Source: Candidatus Alkanophaga liquidiphilum (GTDB lineage Archaea; Halobacteriota; Syntropharchaeia; Alkanophagales; B39-G2). Taken from it: DNA of 64,000 bases. A program made the position numbers and the translations under genes. Below, one piece after another: positions 4,113 to 20,718 of the stretch. How positions within the stretch are numbered: the first letter of the stretch is position 1; the number at the start of each line of letters is the position of its first letter. The notes beneath the pieces were generated by a model that had not been told where the DNA came from, did no database searches, and was given only the letters and a program-made list of their open reading frames with translations. The stretch spans positions 11,308 to 75,307 of the forward strand of contig JAPHEF010000002.1 in NCBI GenBank assembly GCA_029259535.1, written 5' to 3'.

Positions 4113-5174
4113 GTGCAAAACCCAAGAGTTCCTGTAGTAGGGAAGGAAGGGAAGCCGAGGATGCCGACGAAGGCATCAAGGGCGAGGAGGTGGATCAAGC
4201 AAGGAAAAGCGATACCAAAGTGGTCAAAACTGGGAATATTCTATGTCCAGCTCACCGTGGCTGCGGGGGATGAAGCGCAGGATGTAGTGCTGGGATTAGA
4301 CCCGGGCTCAAGGTTTGATGGCGTTGCGGTAGTGTCCAAGAAAGAAGTGTTGCAAACAGGAATGCTTGAACTTCCAAAAGGCATAGCTAAAAAGATGGAA
4401 CAAAGAAGGCGGCAGAGAAGATTCCGCAGATACAGGAAGTGCAGAAGGCGCCCCTGTAGGTTCAACAATCGCAAACGCAAGGGAGGATGGATTGCGCCTT
4501 CGCAGAAGGCAAAGGTTGATTTTCGACTGAAAGTGGTAGAAGAGTTAAGAAAAATTTACCCAATTAGCAAAGCAGTAGTGGAGGATGTCAGATTCGACCA
4601 CTATCACAAGAGGGGGGGCAGGCACTTCTCCACCGTTGAAATAGGGAAGACCAAAGTGTATAACACGCTACGAGCTTGGTTTGGAGAGTTGGAACTCGTA
4701 GAAGGCATAGAAACAGCGAGGCTCAGAGAGAAATACAACGCCAAAAAAGCAAGAGATAAAAGAGAGCGCTCTATAAATTCACATGCCATAGATGCGTTGG
4801 TTATTGCGGCAAATGAGATAGGGTTAAAAAAACTAAAAGCGCCCTCATTCTTCGTCTGGAAACGGTATCAATATCCGAGAAGGCAACTCCATAAATTCCA
4901 GTTTGAGAAGGGAGGAAGAAGGAGGAGAGAAGGTGGAAGCATGAGCTTAGGTTTCAAGAAGGGAGACATCGTGTTATGGAAAGGCAAGTTAGCAAGGGTG
5001 GGTGGATATTTAGAATCCAAAGGAACAATTTCGCTGCATACTTTCGACGTGGACAACAAACGCTTTACGCAAAATGCAAAACCAGAGGATTGTATAAGGT
5101 TATTCAACCAGAGAATAATGTACACCGCAATTCCTCTCAGCTCTAAAGAGCTTCCTTGCGGCAGGAGGTTGTGA
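4113..5174 (+). CDS. isrB: IsrB-like RNA-guided nickase (IscB homolog lacking the HNH domain)
   Basis: 353 aa. PLMP-type N-terminus (VPVVGKEGKPRMPTKASRARRWIKQGKA). RuvC-I (VVLGLDPGSRFDGVAVV). Arg-rich bridge helix (RRRQRRFRRYRKCRRRPCRFNNRKRK). RuvC-II Glu (AVVEDVRFD). RuvC-III (SHAIDALVIAAN). No HNH (no C..C...H..N..C..C insertion). Confidence 0.7.
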   Translation: MQNPRVPVVGKEGKPRMPTKASRARRWIKQGKAIPKWSKLGIFYVQLTVAAGDEAQDVVLGLDPGSRFDGVAVVSKKEVLQTGMLELPKGIAKKMEQRRRQRRFRRYRKCRRRPCRFNNRKRKGGWIAPSQKAKVDFRLKVVEELRKIYPISKAVVEDVRFDHYHKRGGRHFSTVEIGKTKVYNTLRAWFGELELVEGIETARLREKYNAKKARDKRERSINSHAIDALVIAANEIGLKKLKAPSFFVWKRYQYPRRQLHKFQFEKGGRRRREGGSMSLGFKKGDIVLWKGKLARVGGYLESKGTISLHTFDVDNKRFTQNAKPEDCIRLFNQRIMYTAIPLSSKELPCGRRL

Positions 5175-6932: not shown

Positions 6933-7271
6933 ATGGAGGAGTTGAGTTTCAGAGTGCGGCGGCGGCATCTTGACGTGCTGTTTGCGCTTGCATTCTCGTG
7001 CAGCTTCGGCGCACTCACGCTCACGCACTACTTGCTTGCAAATGGCTTTGTAGAGATGGGGCTGTTGGCAGGGCGTTTCTACATGTTCATAAGCTGGCTG
7101 TTCGCCGCACAATGGGCGTGCCTCTTTGCGATATACCTCGTGTTGAGAAGCGGGCGCTTCGTTCGTTCCGACGCCGACGCCGCCATCACGACGCTTTTCC
7201 CTATACTCCTTTTCTTCTTCTGCTTCGTAGATTTCTGGAACGACGTGCTTGTACTGCTTTTCTCATCCTAG
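6933..7271 (+). CDS. Hypothetical small membrane protein
   Basis: 112 aa with three predicted hydrophobic helices. GC returns to the genomic level here. Competes with the antisense ORF 6786..7112. Confidence 0.3.
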   Translation: MEELSFRVRRRHLDVLFALAFSCSFGALTLTHYLLANGFVEMGLLAGRFYMFISWLFAAQWACLFAIYLVLRSGRFVRSDADAAITTLFPILLFFFCFVDFWNDVLVLLFSS

Positions 7272-7313
7272 TTCGGAGCAGAGATGCTTGTTCTAATTCC
7301 TCAAAAGCTCACC

Positions 7314-8366
7314 TCAGAAAAACTTTCTCATCCGCTCCGCGACATCTTCGGGCATCGTCTCTATTACCCACTCGTAGTGGAATCTTTCCATGAAGCCAGT
7401 ATCGCTCGTGTAAAAAGCTCTGAATCTCGGTCTTGAGATGATTCTCGCATGTAACGAGTAATAATCTTCTTCACCGCCGTTGATGCTTCCGGAGAAGGTC
7501 GTGACGTTGAATGAGTTAACGCCGCTCTTCTTGTAGCAGCGCAGCACCCTAACGAGACACTCCGCAAAGTTCCTAATCTGCCGCTCGTTAAGGTTTGCGA
7601 GCGAGCTCACGCCCTTGAAAATCAGCATAACCTCGTTATTCCCGAGTGGCGCGAAGCTTGCGAGCGCCACGACGCCGTCGACACCGCTGCCAATTTCGCC
7701 TATAAACCTCTCACCGACGGCTTTCTCCTCCTCGACGAGCGCCGCCCAATAGTTTCTGCCAGCCCCCTCAAAGTATGTCCTACTGTTTTCCAGCAGCCTG
7801 CGCTGGAAGGGTGTCGGACGTTCTTCAACAAGCACTTGGACGTGCGGGTGTATGATGCTCGCCGCCGCCGACGGCAGGTGGTTCCAGTTCCAAATCGGGT
7901 ATTTTGCGCTCCTGTCGTATTTATAGACGGCGTTTACGAACGCGATGCTCGCTTTCAGGTTGCTTTCTATGATTTTCACGGAGAACTCATGCAGGTCGAG
8001 GAAGTGGTCTTCTGAGAACGTGACGACGGCATGATATTTTCCGAAGGGGAAGAGGTTAGGGAACGCACAGCTACTACCGACGACAATACGCCCCTCATAG
8101 AAACCCGTGAACTTAGGAGTGGCGCTCTTAAGCCGCTCAGGGCAGAAAAAGCAGCCCTCTCTCGTCCGCTTTATCATCTCATCTACTTCCTCTTCCGCCT
8201 CCTCAACCTGCTTCACCCTTTTCGAGCGAGCCACGTTTATCCGGCACTCCACGCCGGTAAAAGCATCTCTACGGTATTCTATTTCATGCTCATCGGCAGC
8301 AAATCCACGCAGCGGACTTAAAAACCTTGCTACTCTTACTAACTTTTCCTTTCCAGAACCTGTCAT
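7314..8366 (-). CDS. Galactose-1-phosphate uridylyltransferase-like HIT-family nucleotidyltransferase (GalT family)
   Basis: 350 aa with an HIT-type HPHVQV (HxHxQ) active-site motif and a CFFCPE zinc-knuckle-like motif in the N-terminal half. Length and two-half architecture match GalT. Confidence 0.7.
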   Translation of the reverse strand: MTGSGKEKLVRVARFLSPLRGFAADEHEIEYRRDAFTGVECRINVARSKRVKQVEEAEEEVDEMIKRTREGCFFCPERLKSATPKFTGFYEGRIVVGSSCAFPNLFPFGKYHAVVTFSEDHFLDLHEFSVKIIESNLKASIAFVNAVYKYDRSAKYPIWNWNHLPSAAASIIHPHVQVLVEERPTPFQRRLLENSRTYFEGAGRNYWAALVEEEKAVGERFIGEIGSGVDGVVALASFAPLGNNEVMLIFKGVSSLANLNERQIRNFAECLVRVLRCYKKSGVNSFNVTTFSGSINGGEEDYYSLHARIISRPRFRAFYTSDTGFMERFHYEWVIETMPEDVAERMRKFF

Positions 8367-8470
8367 TTTCTCCCCTCTTTTATATAAGGACAGAACTTAA
8401 GGATGTTTAAACGATGTATAAAAAATTGCGTTTTTCGGCAAACTTTATATAATACATCCTAAATTTTTCA
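8367..8470. promoter_or_regulatory. Divergent promoter region with two TATA-like boxes
   Basis: TTTTATATAA (8378-8387) and CTTTATATAAT (8444-8454). The second lies about 26 nt upstream of the ATG at 8471, consistent with a leaderless transcript. Confidence 0.4.
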
Positions 8471-9808
8471 ATGAAGATGATCGTGCATGACGTATTAAGG
8501 GCTTTTGAGAAGATAAATGGATATACCATTTTGGTAAAGGGTAGTCCGGGAACTGGAAAGACGACGTTTGCTGTGACGTTACTTGAAGAAGTATGCTCAA
8601 AAGGTGGCGGGAAAGGGGTTTACATATCCACACGGGTGGACCCGGAAACACTCTACAAACAGTTTCCGAGAATAAGCGAGTTCGTGCCTGCGGGGAACAT
8701 ATTGGATGCCACACAGTCGGAGTTCGTTGAGGACAAATCAAAGCATTTGAGATACGAGGATTTTGCAAGTTTCTTGCGTGCAGTTTTCACAAAAGTTGAA
8801 GAGAAGGACGTTTCCATCCTGATCGTCGACAGTTGGGATGCCATACACTCGCAAATAGGCGGCGACGCAGAAAAGCTGAACGTCTCGATGCTTGATATCG
8901 CTCGGAAAACCGAGACCAACCTTGTGTTGATAAGCGAGAAGGAGGAAGAGGAGAAGCTCGACTACCTCGTAGACTGCATCCTGCTGTTCAAGCAGGAGCG
9001 AGAGGACGAGAGACTCGTGCGGCGTGTATTTATCCAGAAGATGCGGGGTATCCCGATAAAAGAGCAGATGAACTTGTTCACTTTACATGACGGACGGTTC
9101 ACGCATGTCACTTCCAACATAGCGCTTGTGAGAGCAAAAAAGGAGAGAATACCTAACAAGGACGCGCTATTCTCCTCGGGCATAATGGCGCTCGATGACA
9201 TCCTCGGAGGCGGCTACCCGAACGGCGGCTTCATACTGCTCGAAGTGGCGAAGGAAAGCGTGGGCTTAGAAAGCTATTGGCAAATAGTATTGCAGACCGT
9301 TGCCAACTTCCTACACAACGACATGGGCGTCCTTGTCATTCCTGAGGAGGGTTTAGATGCGGAGTTCATTAAAGAAAGCATCGCCAACTACGTCGAGGAA
9401 GCCAAGATACGCAATGTGAAAGTAATAAACGCTGATGCGGGCAGCGACAACCTGTCCGAATACTTCAACAGTTATATGGAAGAATATAATAAGCTTAAGG
9501 GCAAGGGTAAACACTGTCTGCACGTCATCGGACTCACGAAGATGAATTTCTTTGACGAAAATGACGTGCGCGTGCACCTTTCCGAGCTTATAGTGCGAAA
9601 TCACCACAACGGAGACCTAATGATAGGATTAATGAGACCTTCGACGGTATTGAGCGGCGAAATAAAAGAAATGGCAAGCATCTATCTTAAAATGACACAG
9701 ATAGATGGCGTCGTGTGTATGTATGGGATAAGACCAAGGACTTGCATATACGGACTTTCTCAGGAATTGGGGGAGTTTTTAGAGATAAAACTCACACCCA
9801 TCGTTTGA
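8471..9808 (+). CDS. KaiC/RecA-superfamily ATPase with two domains, the second degenerate
   Basis: 445 aa. Domain 1 has Walker A GSPGTGKT and Walker B-like ILIVDSWD. Domain 2 (SSGIMALDDILGGGYPNGGFILLE...) has the RecA-like fold signature but lacks an intact P-loop. Confidence 0.65.
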   Translation: MKMIVHDVLRAFEKINGYTILVKGSPGTGKTTFAVTLLEEVCSKGGGKGVYISTRVDPETLYKQFPRISEFVPAGNILDATQSEFVEDKSKHLRYEDFASFLRAVFTKVEEKDVSILIVDSWDAIHSQIGGDAEKLNVSMLDIARKTETNLVLISEKEEEEKLDYLVDCILLFKQEREDERLVRRVFIQKMRGIPIKEQMNLFTLHDGRFTHVTSNIALVRAKKERIPNKDALFSSGIMALDDILGGGYPNGGFILLEVAKESVGLESYWQIVLQTVANFLHNDMGVLVIPEEGLDAEFIKESIANYVEEAKIRNVKVINADAGSDNLSEYFNSYMEEYNKLKGKGKHCLHVIGLTKMNFFDENDVRVHLSELIVRNHHNGDLMIGLMRPSTVLSGEIKEMASIYLKMTQIDGVVCMYGIRPRTCIYGLSQELGEFLEIKLTPIV

Positions 9809-10259
9809 GGTCCCTTATTTTAATGGAGTTATTCCTATTATTGGCATTATTGGCATTTTTAGACGATTCTCCCTGCTTTGCCGCCCTCCTTTCTATAAGG
9901 GTCTTTATGCGGTCTTTTTCGGTCTTGCCCTCTTCTATCTCTTTTATTTTATCAAGGAACTCGAAGAGCGCCTTTGTGTATGGCGAGTCCTCGTTTATTT
10001 TTATGACCCTTGAGCGTCCGACAGTCACTTCTTTTAAGATTCCCGCCTTCAGCAGGTCTGAGACGACCTTGCGGACCGTGACGTGGCTCTTCCCCAACGC
10101 TTTCGTCAAGCCCGTGATATTGTCGAAATAACTCCCACCATTATAGAATAGCAGGATGGTCTTCACATGCGTGGGGCTTCCGAACATCTGCTTGATAACT
10201 TTCACATCCATGATTGTCCGTAACTTAGGATGATTTAAATATCTTTCTCTAATATTCAA
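9792..10259 (-). CDS. Winged-helix transcriptional regulator
   Basis: 155 aa. Central HTH-like segment (TKALGKSHVTVRKVVSDLLKAGILKEV) and a low-complexity NANNANNRNN tail. Convergent with, and overlapping, the KaiC-like gene 3' end by 17 bp. Confidence 0.55.
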   Translation of the reverse strand: MNIRERYLNHPKLRTIMDVKVIKQMFGSPTHVKTILLFYNGGSYFDNITGLTKALGKSHVTVRKVVSDLLKAGILKEVTVGRSRVIKINEDSPYTKALFEFLDKIKEIEEGKTEKDRIKTLIERRAAKQGESSKNANNANNRNNSIKIRDLKRWV

Positions 10260-10331
10260 AAAAATGCAGCCCCATTTCTAATAAATTTTCAAACATAGAA
10301 AACTATTTTAATATAATCCTCACATTTTTGC

Positions 10332-11510
10332 GTGATGCCTCGTAAACTGATACTTATTCCATGCGCACTGATGCTTGTGGCTTTGCTCCAGCCTGCTTTC
10401 ACATACACAGGCGGCGGCATCGGCGGCGTTGACGACGAATACGTGACGAGCCTCGTCATCACGCCGGCGAACGCCACCTTATTCGCTGGAAACGTGCAGC
10501 AGTTCACTGCATTCGCAACCGTGCTTGTCGAAAATGGCACCGAGACGAAGGACGTGACGCATAAGGTCAAATGGCGAGCCACCATCGGCGAGATTGATGA
10601 AAATGGCGTATTCCGGGCGCGTAAAGCTGGCGTCGGCGTCGTAAAGGCGATATATGGCACCATGTGTGACGAGGCGAGGGTCGTCGTGGAGCACGGTCCT
10701 GTCCACACCATTGAAATCACTGTGGAGAACAAAACTGTCATAAGTAGAGGGGGCGTGCGGAAAAATTCAAGGGTCTTTTTCGGGTTAAAAGCTTACGACC
10801 GCGAGGGGAACCCTTTCCTCGTGCCCGAAGCTTGTTGGGAATGCGATGACCCAGAAATCGGGCAGGTAAGCGAGGGGATTTTTACGTTTAACCAGTCTAA
10901 CCCGCTCCTCTTCGACGTGGAGACTGGAGAGTTCAACAGGTCATATCTGAACGGCTCAATTCCGCCACCTGAGAACGTGACTGTCACGAGGGACGTGATG
11001 ATTACGGCGTGGGTCGCCTCTGATAAAAAAGCCTCTGTCGTCCTAACGTTGCATGCGGGAAGCGGCGTCGGCGACGACTACGTGACCACGAACGCCACCG
11101 AAGACCCTGAAGAAACAGCGAGCGTGGATGTTGTCCCGAAAATAATGGCGATTCAGGTTATTGCCGCCAATAACTGGGATTTCGGCACCGTATATCCGGG
11201 GACGCCCACCGGCTGGTCGCCCGTCACTTTTAAAAACATAGGGACGTGCGACGTCATCGTCACGATAAAGCCCCCTGCTGCCGACAGCATTTTCAAATAT
11301 TTGGAGTTTAAGGACGCCGCCGGCGACATTTATGACGTGAGCGCTTTCAGCATACTGCTTGAGACGCAGCCGATATATGACGAAATGGGCAGGATTATCG
11401 GATTCTCCTCTGAAGAGGTGACGGTGGACGTCAGGTTGAACTTGCCACCTTCTTACAACTATCCAGAAAGCGTGAAAGAGGCCATAACTTACGTGCTTTC
11501 AGCGGTTTAA
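10332..11510 (+). CDS. Secreted protein with Big_2 (bacterial Ig-like) domains
   Basis: 392 aa. Signal peptide MMPRKLILIPCALMLVALLQPAFT. Two Big_2-like repeats (ITPANATLFAGNVQQFTAFA...VKAIYG). No TM anchor. Confidence 0.6.
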   Translation: MMPRKLILIPCALMLVALLQPAFTYTGGGIGGVDDEYVTSLVITPANATLFAGNVQQFTAFATVLVENGTETKDVTHKVKWRATIGEIDENGVFRARKAGVGVVKAIYGTMCDEARVVVEHGPVHTIEITVENKTVISRGGVRKNSRVFFGLKAYDREGNPFLVPEACWECDDPEIGQVSEGIFTFNQSNPLLFDVETGEFNRSYLNGSIPPPENVTVTRDVMITAWVASDKKASVVLTLHAGSGVGDDYVTTNATEDPEETASVDVVPKIMAIQVIAANNWDFGTVYPGTPTGWSPVTFKNIGTCDVIVTIKPPAADSIFKYLEFKDAAGDIYDVSAFSILLETQPIYDEMGRIIGFSSEEVTVDVRLNLPPSYNYPESVKEAITYVLSAV

Positions 11511-11511
11511 C

Positions 11512-13230
11512 GTGGTTAAAATGAGCGGTGCGGCTCTAACTGGCGTGCGCAAAGCATTTTTAATGCTATTACTGGTTGTAGGCGTGCTGCTACTCGTCAC
11601 AGCGGTCCAGACTACGCAAGCTGCGAGCATAATAGTGCCCGAGGAGGTAAAATTTGAGAGGTGTTACGAAAATGCCGTGAGCCGCACTGTAGTGATTTCA
11701 AGCATGGATTACGCGGGTAGAGTGCGTGTGAGCGACTTCTGGGCGGAGTGCGGCGTGGCTGAAAGAAATCCGCTGTTGCATAACAAAAGCGCTGACGACG
11801 TTGGCATTTCCATAACCTACGATGAAGAATTTTACATCTCAGAAATGCAGACCTACAGCCTGACCGTGAGCGTCAGCGCTGCGTCTCCGGACATTTATCA
11901 CGGCATGCTGCTCTTCGAGCCGCTGGACGCTGCCGGCGACATCATCATTGCAAGGGCGGTCTGGCTATTCGTAGACGCCCGTGCCGTCGTTCTTCAACAG
12001 CCGGAGTCCCCCACGAACAAAACGGACGTTGAAATCCAAGGACTCGCTCCTCGCAACACGTGCATCGAGATTTACGTGAATGCCGAGCTTGTGAACGTCG
12101 CCAGCTCCGACGAACATGGGAATCTCTCTGCGAAAGTGTCCCTTTGCGAAGGCACAAACGAGATATTCGCTAAAATTTCCGACGTGAACGTAACGTCAAA
12201 CGTCGTTACCGTGAAGTGTGATACCACTCCGCCAGAGCCGCCGAAGCTCGACGAGCCGCCTTCACCGGTATATAAAGAAGAAATAGAAATCACGGGGACG
12301 GCAGAGCCATATACCACTGTGAAAATTTTCATTAACGGCAACGTAAGCGGCGAGGCTCTGGTAGTGGCTAGCGGGCGGTTCGAGCTGGAAGTCACGCTTG
12401 TCAGAGGCAACAACACGATAACGGCTATTGCGGTCGACGACGCTGACAATCCGAGCAACGAATCGGCGCCCGTCTTCGTCGAATACAAGGAACGACCGAA
12501 AATAAGGTTAAGCGCAAACCGCACGGTGCTGCCGGCGAACGCCACTGCCTTACTGACCGCAACGATTTATGAAGGCGACGCCGTCGCCGCCTTGAACATA
12601 AGTGTGAAGTTCGAAGTATCCGGAAATGCAACGCTCTCGGCATACGAGGTAAACGCAACTAACGGAAAAGCTACAACTGAAATGCGAGCTACCAACGCCG
12701 GTGGCGGAAGTGTCACCATCACAGCGTCCTCGCCGGAAATGCCAGAAATTGAAAAGGGTTCCATAACGGTTACTTTCACTCCAAGCGAGGAACATGTTGA
12801 ACCAGAGACCCAGCCGTCCACAAACCAAACAGAGCCCCTCGAAAATACAATGTTCGCCGAAAACGCAACAGCGGCTGAAAACGCAACGAATGCCACCTCC
12901 AACGACGGCGAAGAGTCATCTTTCGCTGCATCCAATTTCGCAGCTTACAAGAAATCTTGGATTGCAGCACCTGCCGCCGTCATTGCTGTGGTTGCCGTTG
13001 TTATCTTTTTGTTAATGCGTCGGAATATTAAGGCTGAAAGCGAGACGGGAGGCGACATTAAATCAACATGGTCCGTTCTAAATGCCAATAGGAACAAGGA
13101 CGGCACGTACACGCTTAAAGTCAGCAAGGACGGCAAAGAAACCACGATACGAATAAGCAAAGCCTCTTACAAAAAGCTGAAGAAACAAGGTGGCTTGGAC
13201 ATCGGGGGACATTTTTTAAAACTTTTGTAA
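11512..13230 (+). CDS. Type-I membrane surface protein with Ig-like repeats, Pro-rich linker, C-terminal TM anchor and cytoplasmic tail
   Basis: 572 aa. Signal/TM at the N-terminus (LMLLLVVGVLLLVTAVQTTQA). TTPPEPPKLDEPPSP linker. Repeated beta-rich modules. TM helix AAPAAVIAVVAVVIFLL followed by a roughly 60-aa basic tail. Starts 1 bp after the upstream gene's stop, indicating an operon. Confidence 0.6.
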   Translation: MVKMSGAALTGVRKAFLMLLLVVGVLLLVTAVQTTQAASIIVPEEVKFERCYENAVSRTVVISSMDYAGRVRVSDFWAECGVAERNPLLHNKSADDVGISITYDEEFYISEMQTYSLTVSVSAASPDIYHGMLLFEPLDAAGDIIIARAVWLFVDARAVVLQQPESPTNKTDVEIQGLAPRNTCIEIYVNAELVNVASSDEHGNLSAKVSLCEGTNEIFAKISDVNVTSNVVTVKCDTTPPEPPKLDEPPSPVYKEEIEITGTAEPYTTVKIFINGNVSGEALVVASGRFELEVTLVRGNNTITAIAVDDADNPSNESAPVFVEYKERPKIRLSANRTVLPANATALLTATIYEGDAVAALNISVKFEVSGNATLSAYEVNATNGKATTEMRATNAGGGSVTITASSPEMPEIEKGSITVTFTPSEEHVEPETQPSTNQTEPLENTMFAENATAAENATNATSNDGEESSFAASNFAAYKKSWIAAPAAVIAVVAVVIFLLMRRNIKAESETGGDIKSTWSVLNANRNKDGTYTLKVSKDGKETTIRISKASYKKLKKQGGLDIGGHFLKLL

Positions 13231-13362
13231 AAAATTCTTCTTATTCGTTAAATAATTTGATTATTTTGAAATAAAATCTTCAATGAAGGGAAAATACTTT
13301 AGTATGATGGCGTAATTCATTGTCGTTAATTTGAAAGTGGGGGTGAGAACATCCGAAAGGAT
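13231..13362 (+). promoter_or_regulatory. AT-rich putative archaellin promoter region
   Basis: About 130 bp of under 30% GC with several TATA-like elements (TTAAATAATT, GAAATAAAAT, AAAATACTTTA) directly upstream of the first flaB. Confidence 0.3.
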
Positions 13363-13419
13363 ATAAGAAGTGGACGAAGGCGTAGGAAAGGCTTTACGGG
13401 GCTGGAAGCAGCGATCGTA

Positions 13420-14010
13420 TTGACGGCGTTCGTCGTCGTCGCCGCCGTCTTCAGCTACGTCGTCCTCAACGCCGGCTTCTTCACCACCCAGAAGAGCAAA
13501 GAGGTCGTCCACACCGGCGTCGAACAAGCCACCTCCAGCATCGAACTGACCGGTGATGTCGTGGGTTACGGCTGGACTTATAACAGCACTGCGGAACGCT
13601 ACGAAAACACGCTCGGCACAAACCTGACTGTCGTCAAGTTCTACTTGGAACTAACCGCCGGGCAGAACCCTATGGACATGGACGGGCTTGTAGTCTCCTA
13701 CACCGATAAAGACACGCACGTCGGCAATCTCACGTATAACGCAAGCGCCACAGGCACCAGCATGACAGGCAGCACTCTTGGGATGAAGATGGGCGAATGG
13801 CATTATTCCATCATAACAACGGCAGGATACGGCGACAACGATAATCTGCTCGAGCGGGGAGAGAAAGCCGAAATAACCGTTACGCTACCGGGCTATGGCG
13901 TCACGACGGATGAGCAGTTCATAATAGAGGTCAAACCCGCAAGCGGCGCAACAATCTCAATAACGAGGAGCGCACCGTCGTCTATAGACAAAGTGATGAA
14001 CCTGCATTGA
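13420..14010 (+). CDS. flaB: Archaellin (flagellin) FlaB/ArlB, copy 1; 5' end uncertain
   Basis: Class-III signal peptide and archaellin N-terminal helix AFVVVAAVFSYVVLNAGFFTTQKSKEVVHTGVEQATSSIEL. The open frame extends upstream to 13330 encoding ...RRRRKGFTGLEAAIVL (prepilin-peptidase site), but has no in-frame ATG/GTG/TTG before the TTG at 13420. Confidence 0.75.
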   Translation: MTAFVVVAAVFSYVVLNAGFFTTQKSKEVVHTGVEQATSSIELTGDVVGYGWTYNSTAERYENTLGTNLTVVKFYLELTAGQNPMDMDGLVVSYTDKDTHVGNLTYNASATGTSMTGSTLGMKMGEWHYSIITTAGYGDNDNLLERGEKAEITVTLPGYGVTTDEQFIIEVKPASGATISITRSAPSSIDKVMNLH

Positions 14011-14022
14011 GGAGGTGGATGG

Positions 14023-14754
14023 ATGAGAAAAAATATTTTTAACAACAAGAGGGGCTTTACGGGGCTGGAAGCCGCAATTGTATTGACCGCGTTCGTGGTG
14101 GTTGCTGCGGTTTTCAGCTACGTTGTGCTGAACGCCGGCTTCTTCACCACCCAGAAGAGCAAAGAGGTCGTCCACACCGGCGTCGAACAAGCCACCTCCA
14201 GCATCGAACTTGCTGGAACGGTCATTGGGCATGGCTGGGAGTATGGTGAGGTCGTCGGAAGCATCACGGGAACTACGAACGCCGTTGTCGGAACGTGGAA
14301 CCGCAGTACCTACACGAATCCCGACAACTACACAACGTACTGGTCATACTACGCGTGGAACGATACGAACAAGACGCAGCTCGACTCCACGAACCTGACG
14401 GTGGTAGAGTTCTACATTCAGCTAACAGCCGGGCAAAATCCGATAGCGTTGAACAAGCTGACGATAGCATACACCGATAAGGAACTGCACGAGGGCAATC
14501 TCACGTATTGCGCTTATGGAAACGCCTCTAAAGGGAACATGACGATGGGCTGTTGGAATTACACGATGGTCCAAGGGGATTCTGATAACTTGCTGGAGGC
14601 AAACGAGCAGGCGAAAATCATAGTTTCGCTGCCGGACTACGGCGTCACTGCGAACAAAGAATTCACGATAGAAGTGAAGCCAGCATCTGGAGCGTCCATT
14701 GCGATAGTGAAAAGAGCGCCAGTCTCCATACACAAATCGGACCCGCTGTATTAG
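14023..14754 (+). CDS. flaB: Archaellin FlaB/ArlB, copy 2
   Basis: 243 aa. MRKNIFNNKRGFTGLEAAIVLTAFVVVAAVFSYVVLNAGFFTTQKSKEVVHTG. Canonical class-III signal plus archaellin N-domain. Multiple N-x-S/T sequons. Confidence 0.9.
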   Translation: MRKNIFNNKRGFTGLEAAIVLTAFVVVAAVFSYVVLNAGFFTTQKSKEVVHTGVEQATSSIELAGTVIGHGWEYGEVVGSITGTTNAVVGTWNRSTYTNPDNYTTYWSYYAWNDTNKTQLDSTNLTVVEFYIQLTAGQNPIALNKLTIAYTDKELHEGNLTYCAYGNASKGNMTMGCWNYTMVQGDSDNLLEANEQAKIIVSLPDYGVTANKEFTIEVKPASGASIAIVKRAPVSIHKSDPLY

Positions 14755-14764
14755 GGGGTGGAAA

Positions 14765-15322
14765 ATGAGGGCGAAATTGAAATTTAAGAATAAGAAGGGC
14801 TTTACGGGGCTGGAAGCAGCGATCGTATTGACGGCGTTCGTCGTCGTCGCCGCCGTCTTCAGCTACGTCGTCCTCAACGCCGGCTTCTTCACCACCCAGA
14901 AGAGCAAAGAGGTCGTCCACACCGGCGTGACGCAAGCCACGTCGTCCGTCGAGTTGCTCGGCGATGTTATCGCTTATGGGAACACTACCAGCGGTAAGGT
15001 TGTGAACATAACCTTCACGTTGGCATTGACAGCCGGGCATCATCCCGTGGATTTGACTCCCGGGAAAACCGTTATCTCCTACTACGACGCCGATAGATAC
15101 GTGAACAACGCTACATGGACGCTCACGTTCGTCGGGGACCAGGAAACGGTGGACAACATTTTGGAGTTTGGAGAGAAGGCGGAGATAAGCGTGAATACGT
15201 CGGATTATACCTTGGAAAGAAACGAGCAGTTCACCATAGAAGTGAAGCCGCCAGAAGGTGCGACGCTGGCTATAACGCGAACGATACCACCAAGTGTTGA
15301 CACTGTGATGAATCTGCACTAA
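14765..15322 (+). CDS. flaB: Archaellin FlaB/ArlB, copy 3
   Basis: 185 aa. MRAKLKFKNKKGFTGLEAAIVLTAFVVVAAVFSYVVLNAGFFTTQKSKEVVHTGV. The N-terminal ~60 aa are near-identical to copies 1 and 2; the C-terminus is divergent. Confidence 0.9.
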   Translation: MRAKLKFKNKKGFTGLEAAIVLTAFVVVAAVFSYVVLNAGFFTTQKSKEVVHTGVTQATSSVELLGDVIAYGNTTSGKVVNITFTLALTAGHHPVDLTPGKTVISYYDADRYVNNATWTLTFVGDQETVDNILEFGEKAEISVNTSDYTLERNEQFTIEVKPPEGATLAITRTIPPSVDTVMNLH

Positions 15323-15324
15323 CT

Positions 15325-15352
15325 ATTTTTCTTTTTATTTTTTACTTGGTGA
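15325..15352 (+). terminator. T-rich archaeal terminator after flaB3
   Basis: CTATTTTTCTTTTTATTTTTTACTT, oligo-T runs immediately after the stop codon. Confidence 0.4.
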
Positions 15353-15358
15353 TGCGCT

Positions 15359-16246
15359 ATGGGTGGTGAGATAAAAGTAACAAATCTTGGTCATTTGGAA
15401 GAAGAAATGAAGCTTCTAAAGGGGGAAATTAAGAAGATACTCATAGACATTCGGGAGATCATGAACAACTTAGAGAATCCTTTTAGAAATATGGAAGTGA
15501 TAAAAGAGATGATAATGAGCGATGAACGAATAGAGGTATTGAAGAATGACATTCTTAAGAAGATAAAAGAAGGATACATAAAACCTGAGGTTGATTTGGA
15601 CAGATTTAAGGAGGAGATATTAGAAAAAATTGAGGAGGAGGCGAAAGCGAGGCTGAAAGAAGTTGTTAAAGATGCTCAAGTGAAAGAAATTTCGCCGGAG
15701 GCACTGGAGGCGGTGAAGGAAGAGATTATTAACGAGCTAACAGAGAGTTTGGAAAAGTTCGTGGAGGAGAGGTTAAATGCTGCTATGGAGCAAGTGAGGG
15801 CCGATGTGTCGAGTGCCGAAGAGCTGAAAGAGGAGATTGAGAGGGCGAGGGAGCGTCTAAAAAAGGAAGTGGGCAGAGACCTAAGCCACGAAGAGGAGAG
15901 GGCGTCGCCTACGAGAGAAGAGCGTATGGCTATTTTGAGGGGTAGGGCGTTGGAGTCGGGGATTGACGTTCAGAAATTGACTGAGCTCATGCTCTGGACG
16001 GACAGAATGCTTTCAATTATAGGACGGGAGCAGCTGAGCCGCATCCTTGAAATCTACACGCTCACCGGGAACATGCCTGAGAGCGTCAAAGAGCTTATAT
16101 TAAAGATTTCAGAACTTTCGGATAAGACTCCCAAGCGAGAGGTAAGCATGAGGGATTGCATACTTGCGGTCTACCATCTTAACAAGGTATTACGGGATGA
16201 AGGGCCTGACCCTTTGATATTATCGATGCTTGAGTGGGGGGAGTGA
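15359..16246 (+). CDS. flaD: Archaellum protein FlaC/D/E family (ArlCDE)
   Basis: 295 aa. N-terminal coiled coil (E/K-rich) and a C-terminal domain matching the conserved FlaD/E domain (LTELMLWTDRMLSIIGREQLSRILEIYTLTGNMPESVKELILKI). Sits in the fla operon directly after flaB. Confidence 0.65.
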   Translation: MGGEIKVTNLGHLEEEMKLLKGEIKKILIDIREIMNNLENPFRNMEVIKEMIMSDERIEVLKNDILKKIKEGYIKPEVDLDRFKEEILEKIEEEAKARLKEVVKDAQVKEISPEALEAVKEEIINELTESLEKFVEERLNAAMEQVRADVSSAEELKEEIERARERLKKEVGRDLSHEEERASPTREERMAILRGRALESGIDVQKLTELMLWTDRMLSIIGREQLSRILEIYTLTGNMPESVKELILKISELSDKTPKREVSMRDCILAVYHLNKVLRDEGPDPLILSMLEWGE

Positions 16247-16722
16247 GGGTGTCGGAAAGTGTTATAACTGCGGCAATCCTCACTATCGCCTCCGTCATAT
16301 GCGCCGTTGCTCTGATAAATGTTTTATATCCCTCGGTGGTGAGCGTTGGTGGCTCGTTCATAACAACTTCTTCTAAATTGAGCGATAAAATAAAAAGCGA
16401 TATAGAGATAATAAGCGAGGGGAATACCACTGATGTTGTTTACGTATGGGTAAAAAACGTAGGGAAAACCGAAATTCCACAGGTTGATAATTCGGACTTG
16501 TTTTTTGGGCTCGTAGATGATTTTCAAAGAGTAACTTATGACGAAAGCCTCTCTACGTCGCCAAGCTGGAATTTTACCATTGAAAATGACGACGGCGACG
16601 GGCGTTGGGACGTGGGCGAGACCATAAAAATTACAATCAACCAAACGGCAACGCCTGGGGATTATTATGTCAAATTTGTGATTTACAACGGTGTTTCGGA
16701 TGAAGATTTTTTCTCGATATGA
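16234..16722 (+). CDS. flaF: Archaellum stator protein FlaF (ArlF)
   Basis: 162 aa. N-terminal archaellin-like hydrophobic helix (ITAAILTIASVICAVALINVLYP) followed by a beta-rich domain. Operon position after flaCDE. Confidence 0.6.
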   Translation: MGGVRVSESVITAAILTIASVICAVALINVLYPSVVSVGGSFITTSSKLSDKIKSDIEIISEGNTTDVVYVWVKNVGKTEIPQVDNSDLFFGLVDDFQRVTYDESLSTSPSWNFTIENDDGDGRWDVGETIKITINQTATPGDYYVKFVIYNGVSDEDFFSI

Positions 16723-16736
16723 GGTGATGCCGGGTA

Positions 16737-17243
16737 ATGGGCTTCGGGGCTCTAATCGCAACGATAGTCGCCATGACGCTTCTGGTCTCTGCGATGTATG
16801 TATTTGTGGCAGGGGGGCATTTCATGAGTGAGACGTTGAACTGTGCGGTAAAGGAGATGCAATCGTTGAAAGGCGAGCAGATGCGGACGAAAATTGAAAT
16901 ATCAGATGTTAATATCTCAAGCAATACCGACATGAACGTCACTATTAACAACACAGGCGAGGAAAGGATTAGGGAATTTTCAAAAATGGACGTCATCGTC
17001 TCCTATTATTCGCAGCGAGGAAAGGAGGTGCGGTGGTTGCCATACACGCAGAGCACACCGCCGAAAAATGATACGTGGGCAGTTGTTAAAATACGTCCTG
17101 ATGAAATGAACCCCGGAATCTTAGACCCCGCCGAGGCACTGAACATATGGATAAGATTAAGCTCACCGCTGGATACGAATAAGAGCGGCTGGCTCGTCGT
17201 TGCCACGCCGAACGGCGTTAAAACGTCTTCATACCTCGGGTGA
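16737..17243 (+). CDS. flaG: Archaellum protein FlaG (ArlG)
   Basis: 168 aa. N-terminal TM helix (GALIATIVAMTLLVSAMYVFVAG) followed by a beta-sandwich-like domain. Operon position between flaF and flaH. Confidence 0.6.
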   Translation: MGFGALIATIVAMTLLVSAMYVFVAGGHFMSETLNCAVKEMQSLKGEQMRTKIEISDVNISSNTDMNVTINNTGEERIREFSKMDVIVSYYSQRGKEVRWLPYTQSTPPKNDTWAVVKIRPDEMNPGILDPAEALNIWIRLSSPLDTNKSGWLVVATPNGVKTSSYLG

Positions 17244-17998
17244 TGACGATGGGGATGGAGGGCTTTGACGAGGAAGAGCTTGAGGATGTGTATAAAAACA
17301 AGAAAGTGCTGTCCACCGGAAATTCGGAGATTGATAAGAAGATGGGTGGCGGCATCCCCGTAGGCTCGCTCACGCTCATAGAGGGTCCGAATGACAGTGG
17401 GAAGAGCGTGCTTTCACAGCAAATCATGTGGGGCGGACTCCAGCAGGGCTTCACTATGGCTTATTACACTACGGAAAACACGGTCAAGAGTTTGATAAAG
17501 CAAATGGAGAGCCTCTCCTTAGACATCTCCGACTACTTTATCCTTGGAAGAATCAAAATATTCCCGATTCACCTGAAGGGCATAGAACTGAGCTTTCCGC
17601 TCCTCGAATACTTGCTGAAAAGCATGAAGGTCTTGGAGGAGGAGGTCACGATAATAGACTCACTTACTGTGTTCTTAACGACTTTAGAGCACGCAGAGTC
17701 CTCAGAATCGGATATTATTAACTTCTTTGCAAGTTGCAAGAGTTTGTGCGACGAAGGCAAGACTATCTTAATAACGGCGCACGAATACGCGTTTTCAGAG
17801 GAGTTGCTCGTTAGGATACGCTCGATTTGCGACGGACACATCCGCCTTAGAATAGAGGAGGTCGGGACGCAGCTCATGAAGACGATGGAGGTTGCGAAGA
17901 TGCGTGGCGCTGACAGGACCACCGGCAACATTATCAGCTTTGACGTAGAGCCGGGCTTCGGCTTGCGTATCATCCCGATTTCGCGGGCGAAGGCTTGA
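17240..17998 (+). CDS. flaH: Archaellum ATP-binding protein FlaH (ArlH), single-domain KaiC/RecA-like
   Basis: 252 aa. Walker A GPNDSGKS and Walker B-like VTIIDSLT. 4-bp overlap with flaG. Confidence 0.8.
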   Translation: MMTMGMEGFDEEELEDVYKNKKVLSTGNSEIDKKMGGGIPVGSLTLIEGPNDSGKSVLSQQIMWGGLQQGFTMAYYTTENTVKSLIKQMESLSLDISDYFILGRIKIFPIHLKGIELSFPLLEYLLKSMKVLEEEVTIIDSLTVFLTTLEHAESSESDIINFFASCKSLCDEGKTILITAHEYAFSEELLVRIRSICDGHIRLRIEEVGTQLMKTMEVAKMRGADRTTGNIISFDVEPGFGLRIIPISRAKA

Positions 17999-18094
17999 TT
18001 CCCAGACAAGAAGCGTCGCCAGATTCGTGCGGGGGAGGGACGCAGACCGCTCGCCACGAGTCGGTATTAACTTAAAAACGGCGTTAGAAAGATT

Positions 18095-19471
18095 ATGGAG
18101 GTTTTTTTGAAACCGCGCTCTGTGGCGCTTGTAGGAGTGCCGAGAAAAGAACGCCCCGGCGCATACGTCACGCTCCTAAATCTGCTGGAGAGCTTTGACG
18201 GCGACGTTTACCCCGTAAACCCGCACGCTTCGGAGATTTTAGGCGTGAAAGCGTATCGAAGCATTAAGGACGTGCCTGCGGACGTGGACCTCACCGTCAT
18301 CTCCACAAAGAGGGAGCTCGTGCCGCAGATGGTCGAAGAGTGTGTGGAAAAGGGCGTGCATGGCGTGATAATCGTGACGCAGGGCTTTGCGGAGGCTGAT
18401 GCCGAGGGGCAGGCGTTGCAAGAGGAAATAGTCAGGACGGCGAAGGCGGGTGGTGTGCGTGTGCTCGGTCCAAACACTATGGGCGTGTTGAACGCCTTTA
18501 ACGGCTTCTCGACGACGTTCGGGTCGCTGCATGGCGTTCCGCTGCAGGAGCGGCGGATGCCCGTCGCGATAGTTTCGCAGACCGGCTTTTTTGTCTTGGG
18601 TGTTGGCGAGCTGTTTCCGGGAAAGTTCGTGGATTTGGGAAACATGTGCGACGTAGACTTCGTAGACGCCTTAGAATATTTCGAGAAGGATGAAGAGACG
18701 GAGCTGATAATCCTGCATATGGAGGGACTGCATGGGAAAGATGGGCGGCGCTTCTTGGAGGCGGTAATGAGGGTGGCGAGGCGGAAGCCTATCCTTGTGC
18801 TGAAAACGGGACGTAGTGAGAAAGGTGCGGAGCTTGCGGCGTCGCACACCGGCGCAATGACGGGCAACTATCGTGTTTACACGGCGGCATTGCGGCAGGC
18901 AGGCGCTTTCGTCGTCAGCGACATTGACGAGCTTCAGGACTTCACAAAAGCGTTCCTGCGGCTGCCACCGCTGCGAGGCGCCGGGGTCGCAGTGATAACG
19001 TATGCAGGTGCTGCTGGCGTTATGGTTGCAGACGTCGTCGAGGAGTGCGGCTTGCGGCTTTCTGAGCTTTCCACAGAGACGATCGCCAGAATACAGCGGT
19101 GGATGCCTGCATGGATGCAAGTGCGGAATCCTGTGGACATCTGGGTGGGAGCGATGGCGCACGGTCCCTCAAAAGTCTATGAGGACGTCATACGAGCAGT
19201 GCTTTGCGACGAAGACGTTGCGGCGCTCCTCTGCATATATTTTGCGCCGATGACGGAGGGACATGCGAAAATTGACGTTTCTGACGTGATAAAAGAGGTG
19301 GCGGCTGAGTTTGAGAAGCCTGTGGTCGTATGGCTCTACGGGTATCCCTCCGCCGAATACGTGCGGAAGTTGGAGAGAGGAAGAAACGTGGCAGTCTTCC
19401 CTACGATACGGCGGGCGGTGCAGGCTCTCGCTTTTCTAAATGCCGTCTCGAGTAGGCTCGGCAGCCATTAA
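18095..19471 (+). CDS. CoA-binding domain protein resembling acetyl-CoA synthetase (ADP-forming) alpha subunit / succinyl-CoA ligase alpha-like
   Basis: 458 aa. N-terminal CoA-binding Rossmann region (SVALVGVPRKERPGAYV...VDLTVISTKRELVPQMVEEC), a ligase-CoA domain, and a C-terminal flavodoxin-like region. Confidence 0.65.
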   Translation: MEVFLKPRSVALVGVPRKERPGAYVTLLNLLESFDGDVYPVNPHASEILGVKAYRSIKDVPADVDLTVISTKRELVPQMVEECVEKGVHGVIIVTQGFAEADAEGQALQEEIVRTAKAGGVRVLGPNTMGVLNAFNGFSTTFGSLHGVPLQERRMPVAIVSQTGFFVLGVGELFPGKFVDLGNMCDVDFVDALEYFEKDEETELIILHMEGLHGKDGRRFLEAVMRVARRKPILVLKTGRSEKGAELAASHTGAMTGNYRVYTAALRQAGAFVVSDIDELQDFTKAFLRLPPLRGAGVAVITYAGAAGVMVADVVEECGLRLSELSTETIARIQRWMPAWMQVRNPVDIWVGAMAHGPSKVYEDVIRAVLCDEDVAALLCIYFAPMTEGHAKIDVSDVIKEVAAEFEKPVVVWLYGYPSAEYVRKLERGRNVAVFPTIRRAVQALAFLNAVSSRLGSH

Positions 19472-19559
19472 CCCTCGTCAAAACGGCAGCCATTAACCCT
19501 CGTCAAAACGGCAGCCATTAACCCTCGTCAAAACGGCAGCCATTAACCTTCGTCAAAAC
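19460..19559. repeat. Perfect 4 x 25-bp tandem repeat (GGCAGCCATTAACCCTCGTCAAAAC) spanning the convergent 3' ends of two genes
   Basis: Units at 19460-19484, 19485-19509, 19510-19534 and 19535-19559. The last unit has one C>T change. The + gene's stop (TAA) lies in unit 1 and the minus-strand argD stop lies in unit 4. Confidence 0.9.
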
Positions 19560-20718
19560 CCTTCAAAATATCGGATAAAATCTTCACGACGCCGTCTATT
19601 TGTTTCTCGCTTATGACGAGGGGAGGGACGAGCCGAATGACCCGGTCGGCGGTGCAGTTCAATAAAACACCACGCTTCAACGCTTCATTCACGACATTCT
19701 CGCATTTCTCCTGCAGTTCCACGCCGAGCATGAGTCCTTTCCCCCGGATTTCTTTAACACTGTCGTAGTCACCGATTACCTCGGAAAGCCGTTGCATGAA
19801 GTAAGCTCCGAGCCTTTCCGAGCGTTCCACAAGCTGTTCCTCTTCGATGACGCCGAGCGTTGCGAGCGCCGCCGCACATGCCAGTGGATTTCCGCCGAAC
19901 GTCGAGGCGTGCTCGCCGCGCTCGAAGCTGAAGTTCGAGAGCGTAGCGCCGATTGGAAAGCCCCCGCCGAGCGCTTTTGCAACAGCCATTATGTCAGGCT
20001 GCACTTTGAAATGCTCCTTGCAGAACCAGCGACCGGTGCGTCCGAAGCCGGTTTGCACCTCGTCGAGAATAAAAAGGGCGTCGTGCTTTTCGCAAATCTC
20101 TTTGACCTCCCTCAAGTATTCGAGCGGTGGGATTATCACGCCGGCTTCGCCTTGTATCGGTTCAAGGATGACGGCTGCCGTGTCCTCATCAATAGCTTTT
20201 CTGACGGCGTCTGCGTCGCCGTAACGCACGAACTTCACATTGTGGAGCAGCGGCTCGAAAACGTCACGCTTGACGTGGTGCGTGACGCTGAGCGCCCCGA
20301 AAGTCCGCCCGTGAAAGCTGTTCTGCGCCGCAATAAAACCTTTTTTCCCAGTAACCTTGCGTGCGAGCTTTAGAGCGGCTTCGACGCTCTCTGCTCCGGA
20401 ATTACAGAAGAAAACCTTTTCGAATTTCGCGAGACGGCAGAGCTTTTCCGCAAGCTCGACCTGCGGCTCCGTGTAAAAGAGGTTAGAGAGGTGGATAAGG
20501 CGTTCCGCCTGCGCCTTTATTGCGGCGACGACCCTCGGGTGACAGTGCCCAACACTGTTCACCGCGATGCCGGCGACACAGTCCACGTATTCACGCCCGT
20601 CGGCGTCCTTGACAACGACGCCTCGCCCTTCGACGATGAGCACCGGCAGCCGTGAATATGTCTGCATGATGAACTGCCGCTCCTTCTCCATTACTTCTTG
20701 CCTCTGCAAGGCTTCCAC
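19543..20718 (-). CDS. argD: Acetylornithine aminotransferase / class-III PLP aminotransferase
   Basis: 391 aa with class-III aminotransferase signatures (VDCVAGIAVNSVGHCHP, LILDEVQTGFGRTG, GATLSNFSFERGEHASTFGGNPLACAA). Confidence 0.85.
   Translation of the reverse strand: MEALQRQEVMEKERQFIMQTYSRLPVLIVEGRGVVVKDADGREYVDCVAGIAVNSVGHCHPRVVAAIKAQAERLIHLSNLFYTEPQVELAEKLCRLAKFEKVFFCNSGAESVEAALKLARKVTGKKGFIAAQNSFHGRTFGALSVTHHVKRDVFEPLLHNVKFVRYGDADAVRKAIDEDTAAVILEPIQGEAGVIIPPLEYLREVKEICEKHDALFILDEVQTGFGRTGRWFCKEHFKVQPDIMAVAKALGGGFPIGATLSNFSFERGEHASTFGGNPLACAAALATLGVIEEEQLVERSERLGAYFMQRLSEVIGDYDSVKEIRGKGLMLGVELQEKCENVVNEALKRGVLLNCTADRVIRLVPPLVISEKQIDGVVKILSDILKGFDEG

Follow-up and report, generated by a model that had tools for sequence, protein, structure and literature searches.

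The archaellin genes of Candidatus Alkanophaga liquidiphilum, an alkane-oxidising archaeon of the order Alkanophagales, are preceded by four genes that comparative analysis divides into two pairs with independent distributions. We analysed a 64-kb window of its genome (assembly GCA_029259535.1, contig JAPHEF010000002.1, positions 11,308-75,307 of the forward strand); coordinates given without a contig label refer to this window. Pair A (8471-10211) comprises a small winged helix-turn-helix (wHTH) protein and a P-loop protein of the KaiC/GvpD family, whose gene is called the ATPase gene below. Pair B (10332-13230) comprises a secreted and a membrane protein with immunoglobulin-like (Ig-like) folds. 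In the interpretation that we favour, and to which we grant an even chance, the two conserved pairs have each come to adjoin archaellum (fla) operons, pair A as a regulator and pair B as an envelope component. The genes concerned are the following:

8471-9808, plus strand: two-domain KaiC/GvpD-family P-loop protein, 445 aa (Pfam PF06745, PF07088 and PF20440; KaiC alignment)
9792-10211, minus strand: predicted small winged-helix DNA-binding protein, 139 aa, unnamed family (homologues, alignment, AlphaFold, profile search)
10332-11510, plus strand: secreted protein with a signal peptide, 392 aa, or 391 aa from ATG 10335 (orthologues, alignment, AlphaFold, Foldseek)
11512-13230, plus strand: bitopic membrane protein, 572 aa (GTG 11512) or 569 aa (ATG 11521) (Pfam, orthologue alignment)
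13420-15322, plus strand: three archaellin genes, flaB1-3 (Pfam PF01917)
15359-17998, plus strand: FlaC/D/E-like, FlaF, FlaG and FlaH genes (Pfam, NCBIfam)

Between 7.3 and 19.5 kb the gene order is GalT-like (minus strand), KaiC/GvpD-like ATPase (plus), wHTH (minus), secreted Ig and membrane Ig (both plus), followed by flaB1, flaB2, flaB3, flaC/D/E-like, flaF, flaG, flaH and an ADP-forming acyl-CoA synthetase-like gene. The same locus is present on three further contigs of the species, including GCA_053996935.1, where independent gene callers call all four open reading frames (ORFs). Homologues in other organisms exist for all four proteins, so these are real genes and not chance ORFs. A first-pass annotation of the sequence, which had placed four genes directly 5' of the archaellins, was thus correct as to their existence and position.

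Conservation of pair A was traced through close relatives of the ATPase, obtained by a metagenome scan and exact look-ups, and through a contig scan with the ATPase alignment, which gave at least 15 distant relatives; contigs are cited by labels such as L024. The wHTH and ATPase genes are a conserved pair: they are adjacent in 24 of the 25 informative contigs of Alkanophagales and of ANME-1, the sister group of that order. In 20 of 21 informative ANME-1-type contigs a wHTH gene, single or paired, comes immediately before the ATPase orthologue on its strand, the exception being a contig with a receiver-domain (REC) gene in the wHTH place; the ANME-1 orthologues of the ATPase are 41-63% identical to that of the window. 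All four Alkanophaga-type contigs (window type, L024, L025 and L026) have the wHTH gene convergent with the ATPase gene. The member of the pair most tightly tied to flaB is the wHTH. Where ANME-1 contigs carry a pair of wHTH paralogues and sufficient flanking sequence, flaB is divergently adjacent in six out of six (L019, L027, L028, L035, L036 and L058), in the layout fla(-) / wHTHa wHTHb ATPase(+); a type IV pilus-like ATPase/TadC operon comes next in L019 and L036. ANME-1c (Ca. Methanoxibalbensis ujae) has a lone wHTH gene without an ATPase gene close by; it diverges, at a distance of 176 bp, from the complete operon flaB-CDE-F-G-H-I-J. Beyond the six contigs above, divergence of wHTH and flaB is recorded for L066 and L067. 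The window keeps the divergent layout, with the Ig pair sitting between the wHTH gene and flaB, which starts 3 kb further downstream. As it is found in ANME-1a/b-type, ANME-1c and Alkanophaga loci, the arrangement is probably ancestral.

More widely, GvpD-like ATPases are as a rule accompanied by transcription factors or receivers. The ATPase gene has REC genes next to it in L020, L046, L047, L068 and L037-L044; Methanolobus bombayensis (L005) encodes a 27%-identical GvpD-like ATPase and two REC proteins ~2.7 kb upstream of flaCDE-F-G-H-I-J; and in Ca. Syntrophoarchaeum a 31%-identical GvpD-like ATPase is paired with a FilR1-like regulator and a receiver.

For the 392-aa protein of pair B, only 19 homologues were found in an index of 5.8 billion proteins. 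Full-length orthologues of both Ig proteins immediately precede flaB-...-flaH-flaI-flaJ, in unchanged order, in L059-L061 (44% and 35% identity) and in L062 (37% and 34%), and L070 has the same gene order up to the contig end. The Ig407 protein of L070 falls in one 90% cluster with a protein of Ca. Methanogaster (ANME-2c). These ANME-2c-type Ig-fla contigs have neither the ATPase nor the wHTH of pair A; conversely, no Ig pair is found in the fla loci of ANME-1 and Methanolobus, the pair being shared only with the ANME-2c type. A third surface protein of 692-696 aa is encoded in L059-L061 and L070; it has the transmembrane (TM) anchor and cytoplasmic tail of the membrane Ig protein joined to an unrelated ectodomain.

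A sister-species comparison separates the two pairs within Alkanophaga itself. In L024 and L025 the ATPase is 84% identical to that of the window, and the order runs ATPase, wHTH, then immediately the aminotransferase and 3-hydroxyacyl-CoA dehydrogenase genes found at 19.5-22 kb of the window; the block from the 392-aa Ig gene to flaH, together with the CoA-ligase gene (~10260-19500), is missing. Presence and absence of the Ig pair thus go with those of fla, whereas pair A persists when both are missing. Such independent distributions indicate two pairs and not one four-gene module.

Two main proposals of the first-pass annotation can be judged from these gene contents and conserved neighbourhoods. 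It had reckoned with a lack of conserved co-occurrence with archaellum genes as the outcome that would count against it, and we find that regulator and surface genes both recur beside fla in other lineages. The proposed link with the archaellum stands, and the single four-gene module finds no support: ANME-1 has pair A without the Ig genes, ANME-2c-type contigs have pair B without pair A, and L024/L025 have pair A alone. The arrangement had also been described as new. In the literature that we searched, neither this wHTH family nor the Ig pair appears; the association of KaiC-like proteins with archaella, on the other hand, has already been reported, since KaiC arCOGs are associated with archaellum loci (PMC4858521).

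Each of the four proteins was then characterized by domain assignment. The wHTH and ATPase genes converge, their 3' ends overlapping by 17 bp (9792-9808), which agrees with the first-pass description of a convergent winged-helix gene. Its start is most likely ATG at 10211 (139 aa) and not TTG at 10259 (155 aa), because the former is the gene callers' choice and has a TATA-like element ~30 nt upstream. The AlphaFold model (pLDDT 73.6) shows a winged helix that leads into a long helix at the C-terminus; fold matches in the PDB are generic (TubR, Sso10a-2, AF1382 and MarR/ArsR proteins). The Asn-rich tail noticed in the first pass, KNANNANNRNNS, is present and, according to the family alignment, confined to Alkanophaga. 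The window protein is 98% identical to one from 'Candidatus Alkanophagales archaeon' and reaches no Pfam or NCBIfam family. PF07381 is not among its three Pfam matches at E<=10, nor among the 25 most often matched of the 40 Pfam families hit at E<=10 by 42 members of the wHTH family; the matches listed for the family are sub-threshold and to generic wHTH models. An exhaustive profile search of 1.84 billion representatives yielded only 149 clusters at E<=1e-3, mostly of 90-135 aa. The few named clusters come from Alkanophagales or Methanomicrobia metagenome-assembled genomes and one Aenigmarchaeota, and one family member is a REC-wHTH fusion.

A different gene occupies the position divergent from the Ig-fla string in the ANME-2c-type loci (L060, 1532-2413, minus strand; L062, 8221-9090, minus strand; L070, 4902-5774, minus strand). 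Its conserved product of 289-293 aa has an HTH-like N-terminus and no Pfam match, and is a candidate alternative regulator at the place held by the wHTH in Alkanophaga.

The partner protein had been called KaiC-like in the first pass, and a KaiC-family match is indeed found; KaiC/GvpD-family is the better description, the catalytic glutamates being replaced. Against Pfam it scores 72.3 bits for PF06745 KaiC (cut-off 26.6, residues 17-207), 65.7 bits for PF07088 GvpD_P-loop (cut-off 24, profile positions 3-181 of 189) and 33.9 bits for PF20440 GvpD_bR2 (cut-off 27.9), the last match being confined to profile positions 3-81 of 254. NCBIfam KaiC equivalogs stay far under their cut-off (49.9 vs 408), and no NCBIfam GvpD model is reached. 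The N-terminal domain carries Walker A and Walker B motifs and aligns with structures of KaiC domain CI (best E 6.6e-11). Two of its features are relevant to function:

8540-8563, plus strand: Walker A (P-loop) motif GSPGTGKT, residues 24-31 (read from the sequence)
8627-8635, plus strand: Ser53-Thr54-Arg55 at the place of the catalytic Glu-Glu of KaiC CI (FEE) (phmmer against KaiC chain 8zn5_B)

The P-loop is thus intact, as first noted. Its residues G24, G27, G29, K30 and T31 are invariant in alignment A1, and P26 and T28 additionally so in alignment A2; T54 and R55 are invariant in both alignments, and S53 in A2 and nearly so in A1. The second domain opens with the KaiC-type motif SSGIMALDDILGGGYP, in which the 'SxGxxxLDxxxGGG' entry motif is kept, and has LLEVAKESVG where KaiC has its second P-loop, which makes it a pseudo-ATPase domain, degenerate as the first-pass annotation held. 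These motifs suggest that the protein probably binds nucleotide. With the KaiC catalytic glutamates replaced, a KaiC-style kinase clock is unlikely, and the second domain, having no P-loop, lacks the CII-type autokinase site; the sequence thus makes a KaiC-type autokinase unlikely.

In pair B, the 392-aa protein belongs to the 90% cluster WP_456486741.1 / MDF2954551.1. The two Big_2 domains assigned to it in the first pass hold by fold and not by sequence: the Pfam match to Big_2 (PF02368) is under threshold (E 0.67, 10.4 bits vs a cut-off of 22.8), an orthologue reaching E 0.0068. The structure model that had been suggested as a check gives, in AlphaFold (pLDDT 77.5), three beta-sandwich domains of which two are Big_2-like; Foldseek against the PDB ranks the tandem Big_2 segment of LigA first (E 1e-9) and Ig-repeat S-layer proteins next. 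The third, C-terminal beta-sandwich domain is the most conserved part in the orthologue alignment. Sheath (SH) proteins were considered and set aside, as PMC11576556 does not include these genes and the model consists of ordinary Ig-like sandwiches, judged without an explicit comparison with the SH core.

The membrane protein has a signal peptide, Ig-like domains, a Pro-rich linker and many N-X-S/T sequons. Glucodextran_B and Big_6 pass their Pfam cut-offs and Big_1 falls under its own; for Big_13 the whole-protein cut-off is exceeded, with no single stretch passing at E 0.01. The Ig-like repeats, PEPP/PSP linker and TM anchor described in the first pass are all found, the linker as PPEPPKLDEPPSP and the anchor at residues ~483-502. 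Its start was placed 1 bp past the stop of the upstream gene, which is true of GTG 11512 only and not of ATG 11521, the start chosen by gene callers. The C-terminal part of the protein is encoded as follows:

12958-13227, plus strand: TM anchor (residues ~483-502) and cytoplasmic tail (read from the sequence; orthologue alignment)

The cytoplasmic tail is predicted to be ~70 aa long. Its last ~55 aa form a mini-domain, SxWxV...Y.I.V.K.GK..TI.L....YKKL.K......G.H, that is conserved in all orthologues and was found nowhere else in the window or the fetched loci beyond the membrane Ig orthologues and the 692-696-aa surface protein. No curated Pfam or NCBIfam family matches the tail or the two-gene Ig unit.

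Regulation of the locus would have to operate through three upstream regions:

8426-8465, plus strand: predicted ATPase promoter region, a TTGC-N8-GCAA palindrome, TTTATATA, then CATCCTAAATT (sequence, motif searches, sister species)
10222-10243, minus strand: predicted wHTH promoter, ATATTTAAA then TCATCCTAAGTT, ~30 nt upstream of ATG 10211 (sequence, sister species)
13231-13419, plus strand: AT-rich region upstream of flaB1, presumed fla promoter (our own reading of the sequence)

The ATPase ATG lies 28 nt past the start of the TATA element, so its mRNA is probably leaderless. The wHTH gene and the first Ig gene have a divergent intergenic region of 120 bp in common. Four candidate operators were rejected. 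CATCCT(N)AARTT occurs three times in the window, all at the promoters of the GalT-like, ATPase and wHTH genes, for 0.13 expected; the pattern was derived from those very sites and is only partly kept in the sister species. TTGCA-N12-14-TTTAAA was found, among 70 loci, only upstream of flaB in five ANME-1 contigs; it is a post hoc pattern, and block shuffles give ~2 matches. The TTGC-N8-GCAA palindrome is exact, with different spacers, in two of three sister contigs and one base off (TTGT) in the third; its count is not above chance, and it can equally be read as two back-to-back BRE/TATA units. An ATCC-GAAA-GGAT palindrome before flaB1 is coding sequence at the flaB1 start.

Several observations concern the archaellum genes themselves. 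No flaI or flaJ follows flaH, and a tblastn search of the 64-kb window with the FlaI and FlaJ of ANME-1 gave no match; past flaH, in the stretch 17998-19471, comes the ADP-forming acyl-CoA synthetase-like gene. In L062, the FlaI (T2SSE) gene (16324-20097) encodes 1257 aa with an intein (Pfam Intein_splicing), and L001 has a TadC/T2SSF-like gene ~10 kb upstream of the ATPase gene. The flaB1 reading frame reaches upstream to 13330, encoding IRKDIRSGRRRRKGFTGLEAAIV, with no ATG, GTG or TTG at the expected start; ATC 13351 lies exactly at the position of the start Met of FlaB2 and FlaB3, 3-4 nt past the SD-like GGGGGTGA (13340-13347), and the TTG 13420 start given by the ORF tool would cut off the class III signal peptide. 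Either flaB1 has a non-canonical start codon or it is a crippled first archaellin. In supplementary file 6 of PMC10322722, three contiguous flaB genes (OD815_000169-171), which we take to be flaB1-3 of the window, are expressed at FPK 167-239, most listed genes of that organism in the same sheet being at FPK ~35-120. The four genes studied here are presumably OD815_000165-168, judging from gene order, and are not among the selected genes tabulated in the source data of that study. The same work suggests that direct interspecies electron transfer runs through FlaB and PilA filaments, and notes the lack of multihaem cytochromes in Alkanophaga (PMC10322722).

Upstream of pair A, the GalT-like gene (7314-8366, minus strand) has a weak hexose-1-phosphate uridylyltransferase-like match and is divergent from the ATPase gene, with which it has in common a CATCCT..AAGTT element near its promoter; it could serve glycan precursor synthesis for surface glycoproteins. 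A 353-aa ORF (4113-5174, plus strand) that strongly matches PF14239 RRXRR (171 bits), without a match to HNH, fits an IscB/IsrB-type (OMEGA nuclease-like) protein by its sequence. The RRXRR ORF is present in L002 and GmrSD genes are at the same place in L001, which indicates a strain-variable insertion. ARAGORN finds a tRNA-Pro(CGG) at 40284-40358; an Rfam scan of the whole window at gathering thresholds gave zero matches, not even to the tRNA family.

To our knowledge, few archaellum regulators have been described: ArnR, ArnA/B, EarA and, most recently, CsmR. Outside archaella, the closest parallel to pair A is the gas vesicle system, in which GvpD lowers the amount of the activator GvpE. The window ATPase matches the GvpD P-loop domain nearly full length, as well as the start of basic region 2 (bR2), and its gene adjoins a small transcription-factor gene, as gvpD adjoins gvpE. 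It differs from GvpD in being shorter (445 aa), with a third of the bR2 model matched and no NCBIfam GvpD assignment; moreover, its partner is a winged-helix protein and not of the GvpE type, and the neighbours within ~8 kb on each side are not gvp genes. Repression by GvpD requires its P-loop (Pfeifer et al. 2001, cited in PMC4858521).

A second parallel comes from Haloferax volcanii, where CsmR (HVO_1209), a winged-helix protein of ~13 kDa encoded just upstream of the archaellin genes, controls archaellum expression, and the KaiC-like CirA is proposed as its post-translational modulator (PMC13286277). Here too a small wHTH and a KaiC-like protein are found by the archaellins, a likeness that we draw by description only; CsmR has been reported mostly from Halobacteria and cirA is not described beside csmR, whereas the wHTH and ATPase genes of the window are neighbours. 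EarA is likewise a winged-helix regulator beside the fla operon, acting upstream of the fla promoter (PMC10665913, PMC4858521); Makarova et al. place the family now called EarA (arCOG03422) in PF07381 (PMC4858521). The window resembles this system in that a wHTH is encoded next to the archaellin operon, divergently from the Ig-fla string, and differs in that earA's companion methyltransferase gene (arCOG05058) is missing and a TACATA-type EarA site motif is not evident in the fla upstream region. By analogy, the wHTH protein is best read as an archaellum-promoter regulator comparable to EarA and CsmR, outside the EarA Pfam family among the matches listed. KaiC and ArlH/FlaH are of the same fold family as the window ATPase, with a duplicated RecA-like architecture, and the start of its second domain resembles the FlaH N-terminus; it differs from KaiC in having Thr-Arg for Glu-Glu, one P-loop only and no kaiB-like gene adjacent. 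The regulator pair is thus analogous to GvpD/GvpE and CsmR/CirA, with a new wHTH family.

Pair B resembles LigA, SbsC, SbsB and EA1 in being made of strings of extracellular beta-sandwich domains, and FlaF/FlaG in being Ig-like envelope proteins encoded with archaellum genes. No sequence relationship with FlaF/FlaG is detectable, however, and pair B differs from all of these in its conserved cytoplasmic tail and in its fixed two-gene unit upstream of flaB. The fla-linked Ig pair is uncharacterised.

Inferring from neighbourhood, from domain content and sequence, and from these literature analogies, we propose the following roles. Pair A would be a regulatory switch in which the wHTH protein acts as DNA-binding regulator of adjacent surface-structure promoters, with flaB and, in this genome, the Ig genes now at the divergent position as its targets. 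The KaiC/GvpD-family protein would be its partner, a nucleotide-dependent modulator acting after translation: it would bind nucleotide through the intact P-loop, would probably oligomerise like KaiC-family proteins, and may sequester, destabilise or release the wHTH protein, as GvpD acts on GvpE and as is proposed for CirA on CsmR. Its lack of catalytic glutamates favours a role as nucleotide-state sensor or adaptor over one as a kinase clock. The input signal in relatives would probably come from the receiver-domain proteins encoded beside the ATPase. Pair B would supply envelope components made together with the archaellum. They could build a collar or scaffold that anchors the base of the filament, or act in adhesion, bringing cells of syntrophic consortia into contact. 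The analysis shows gene content, domain assignments and conserved neighbourhoods; all functional steps of this scheme are inferred, among them binding of the wHTH protein to the fla promoter, its interaction with the ATPase and a contact between Ig proteins and archaellum. A more elaborate version, in our view improbable, makes the Ig pair an envelope-spanning archaellum accessory, so far unrecognised, of alkane- and methane-oxidising syntrophs (Alkanophaga, ANME-2c): the tail would bind to the motor or the polar complex, a collar or contact device made of the Ig domains would adapt the filament for attachment to, or electron-transfer contact with, the bacterial partner, and the pair would be co-switched with flaB by the wHTH/GvpD-like switch.

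A number of observations weigh against the favoured interpretation, and several of them suit competing ones. Pair A might be a general signal-transduction module for various surface or unrelated genes, fla being just one context, which we consider unlikely, if worth taking seriously. Five single-wHTH ANME-1 contigs (L037-L039, L041 and L044) have no fla genes within 5-10 kb, such contigs carrying a conserved convergent receiver gene in place of fla; the sister Alkanophaga contig L024 has pair A and no fla; and in L041 the genes just before the wHTH-ATPase pair, in the same orientation, encode two cohesin-domain secreted proteins (7084-9306). Occurring without fla in several contigs, pair A may control surface structures generally, or something else. 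The pilus-like ATPase/TadC operon neighbouring it in L019 and L036 points the same way, as does the pairing of distant GvpD-like ATPases with other transcription factors (FilR1-like) or REC proteins, and Makarova et al. associate KaiC ATPases with many type IV pilus systems (PMC4858521). A special tie to fla is nevertheless suggested by the divergence of wHTH and flaB in all six two-wHTH loci with enough flank and in the ANME-1c loci, and by Methanolobus, which independently has a GvpD-like ATPase by its fla accessory genes. Further points against a role of pair A at the fla promoter are that Ca. Syntrophoarchaeum butanivorans has its wHTH gene on its own, ~9 kb from the archaellin genes, that the wHTH protein matches no EarA model among the families listed, and that the motif searches of the window and of the 70 loci demonstrated no operator, the candidate motifs being post hoc. 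The absence of the catalytic glutamates makes even the word 'ATPase' uncertain.

For pair B, the competing interpretation, possible if on the unlikely side, is that the Ig proteins are ordinary adhesins or S-layer-like proteins on a 'surface island' with fla and do not act on the archaellum. Their fold matches are the LigA adhesin and the S-layer proteins SbsC, SbsB, EA1 and Sap; an extended version of the pair (505 and 566 aa) is found in one case (L063/L064) that has no fla genes in the ~4 kb downstream; flaB has its own upstream region of ~190 bp; and the absence of the pair from ANME-1 fla loci means that it is not a general archaellum component. An association with the archaellum is in turn supported by the order Ig-Ig-flaB, kept on the same strand in two different archaeal orders, by the conserved cytoplasmic tail, common to a second fla-linked protein, and by the loss of the Ig pair together with fla in L024. 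The window archaellins are nearer to those of ANME-1 (58-65% identity) than of ANME-2c (47-54%), FlaH being about equally near both (63% and 64-67%, respectively); the Ig pair is therefore probably not simply part of one transferred fla block. That the four genes form one dedicated system acting as a unit with the archaellum is very unlikely: they are contiguous and 5' of flaB here and on three other contigs of the same species, and the independent distributions described above largely refute this view. Most improbable of all is a defence or mobile-element module made of the KaiC-like protein and the wHTH. PADLOC returns weak matches (mad8, P-loop, E 1.7e-5; wHTH core to PDC-M05A, E 3.9e-9, and to Csa3), and a few kb upstream there is an RRXRR element or GmrSD gene that varies between strains; yet these matches cover only the generic P-loop and winged-helix core, the chromosomal context of pair A is stable across lineages, and no other defence genes are adjacent.

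The favoured interpretation, two conserved pairs that have each come to adjoin archaellum operons, bears on how uncultured syntrophs manage their filaments, which are among their most highly expressed products and have been proposed for direct interspecies electron transfer (PMC10322722, PMC9539880). A wHTH family at the flaB promoter of ANME-1, Alkanophaga and Syntrophoarchaeum relatives, together with its GvpD-like partner, would give a testable handle on filament control in these organisms. If true, GvpD-type control, in which a P-loop protein acts over a transcription factor, would not be limited to gas vesicles. The two Ig proteins and their conserved cytoplasmic tail are candidates for undescribed envelope parts of the euryarchaeal archaellum, or for consortium adhesion.

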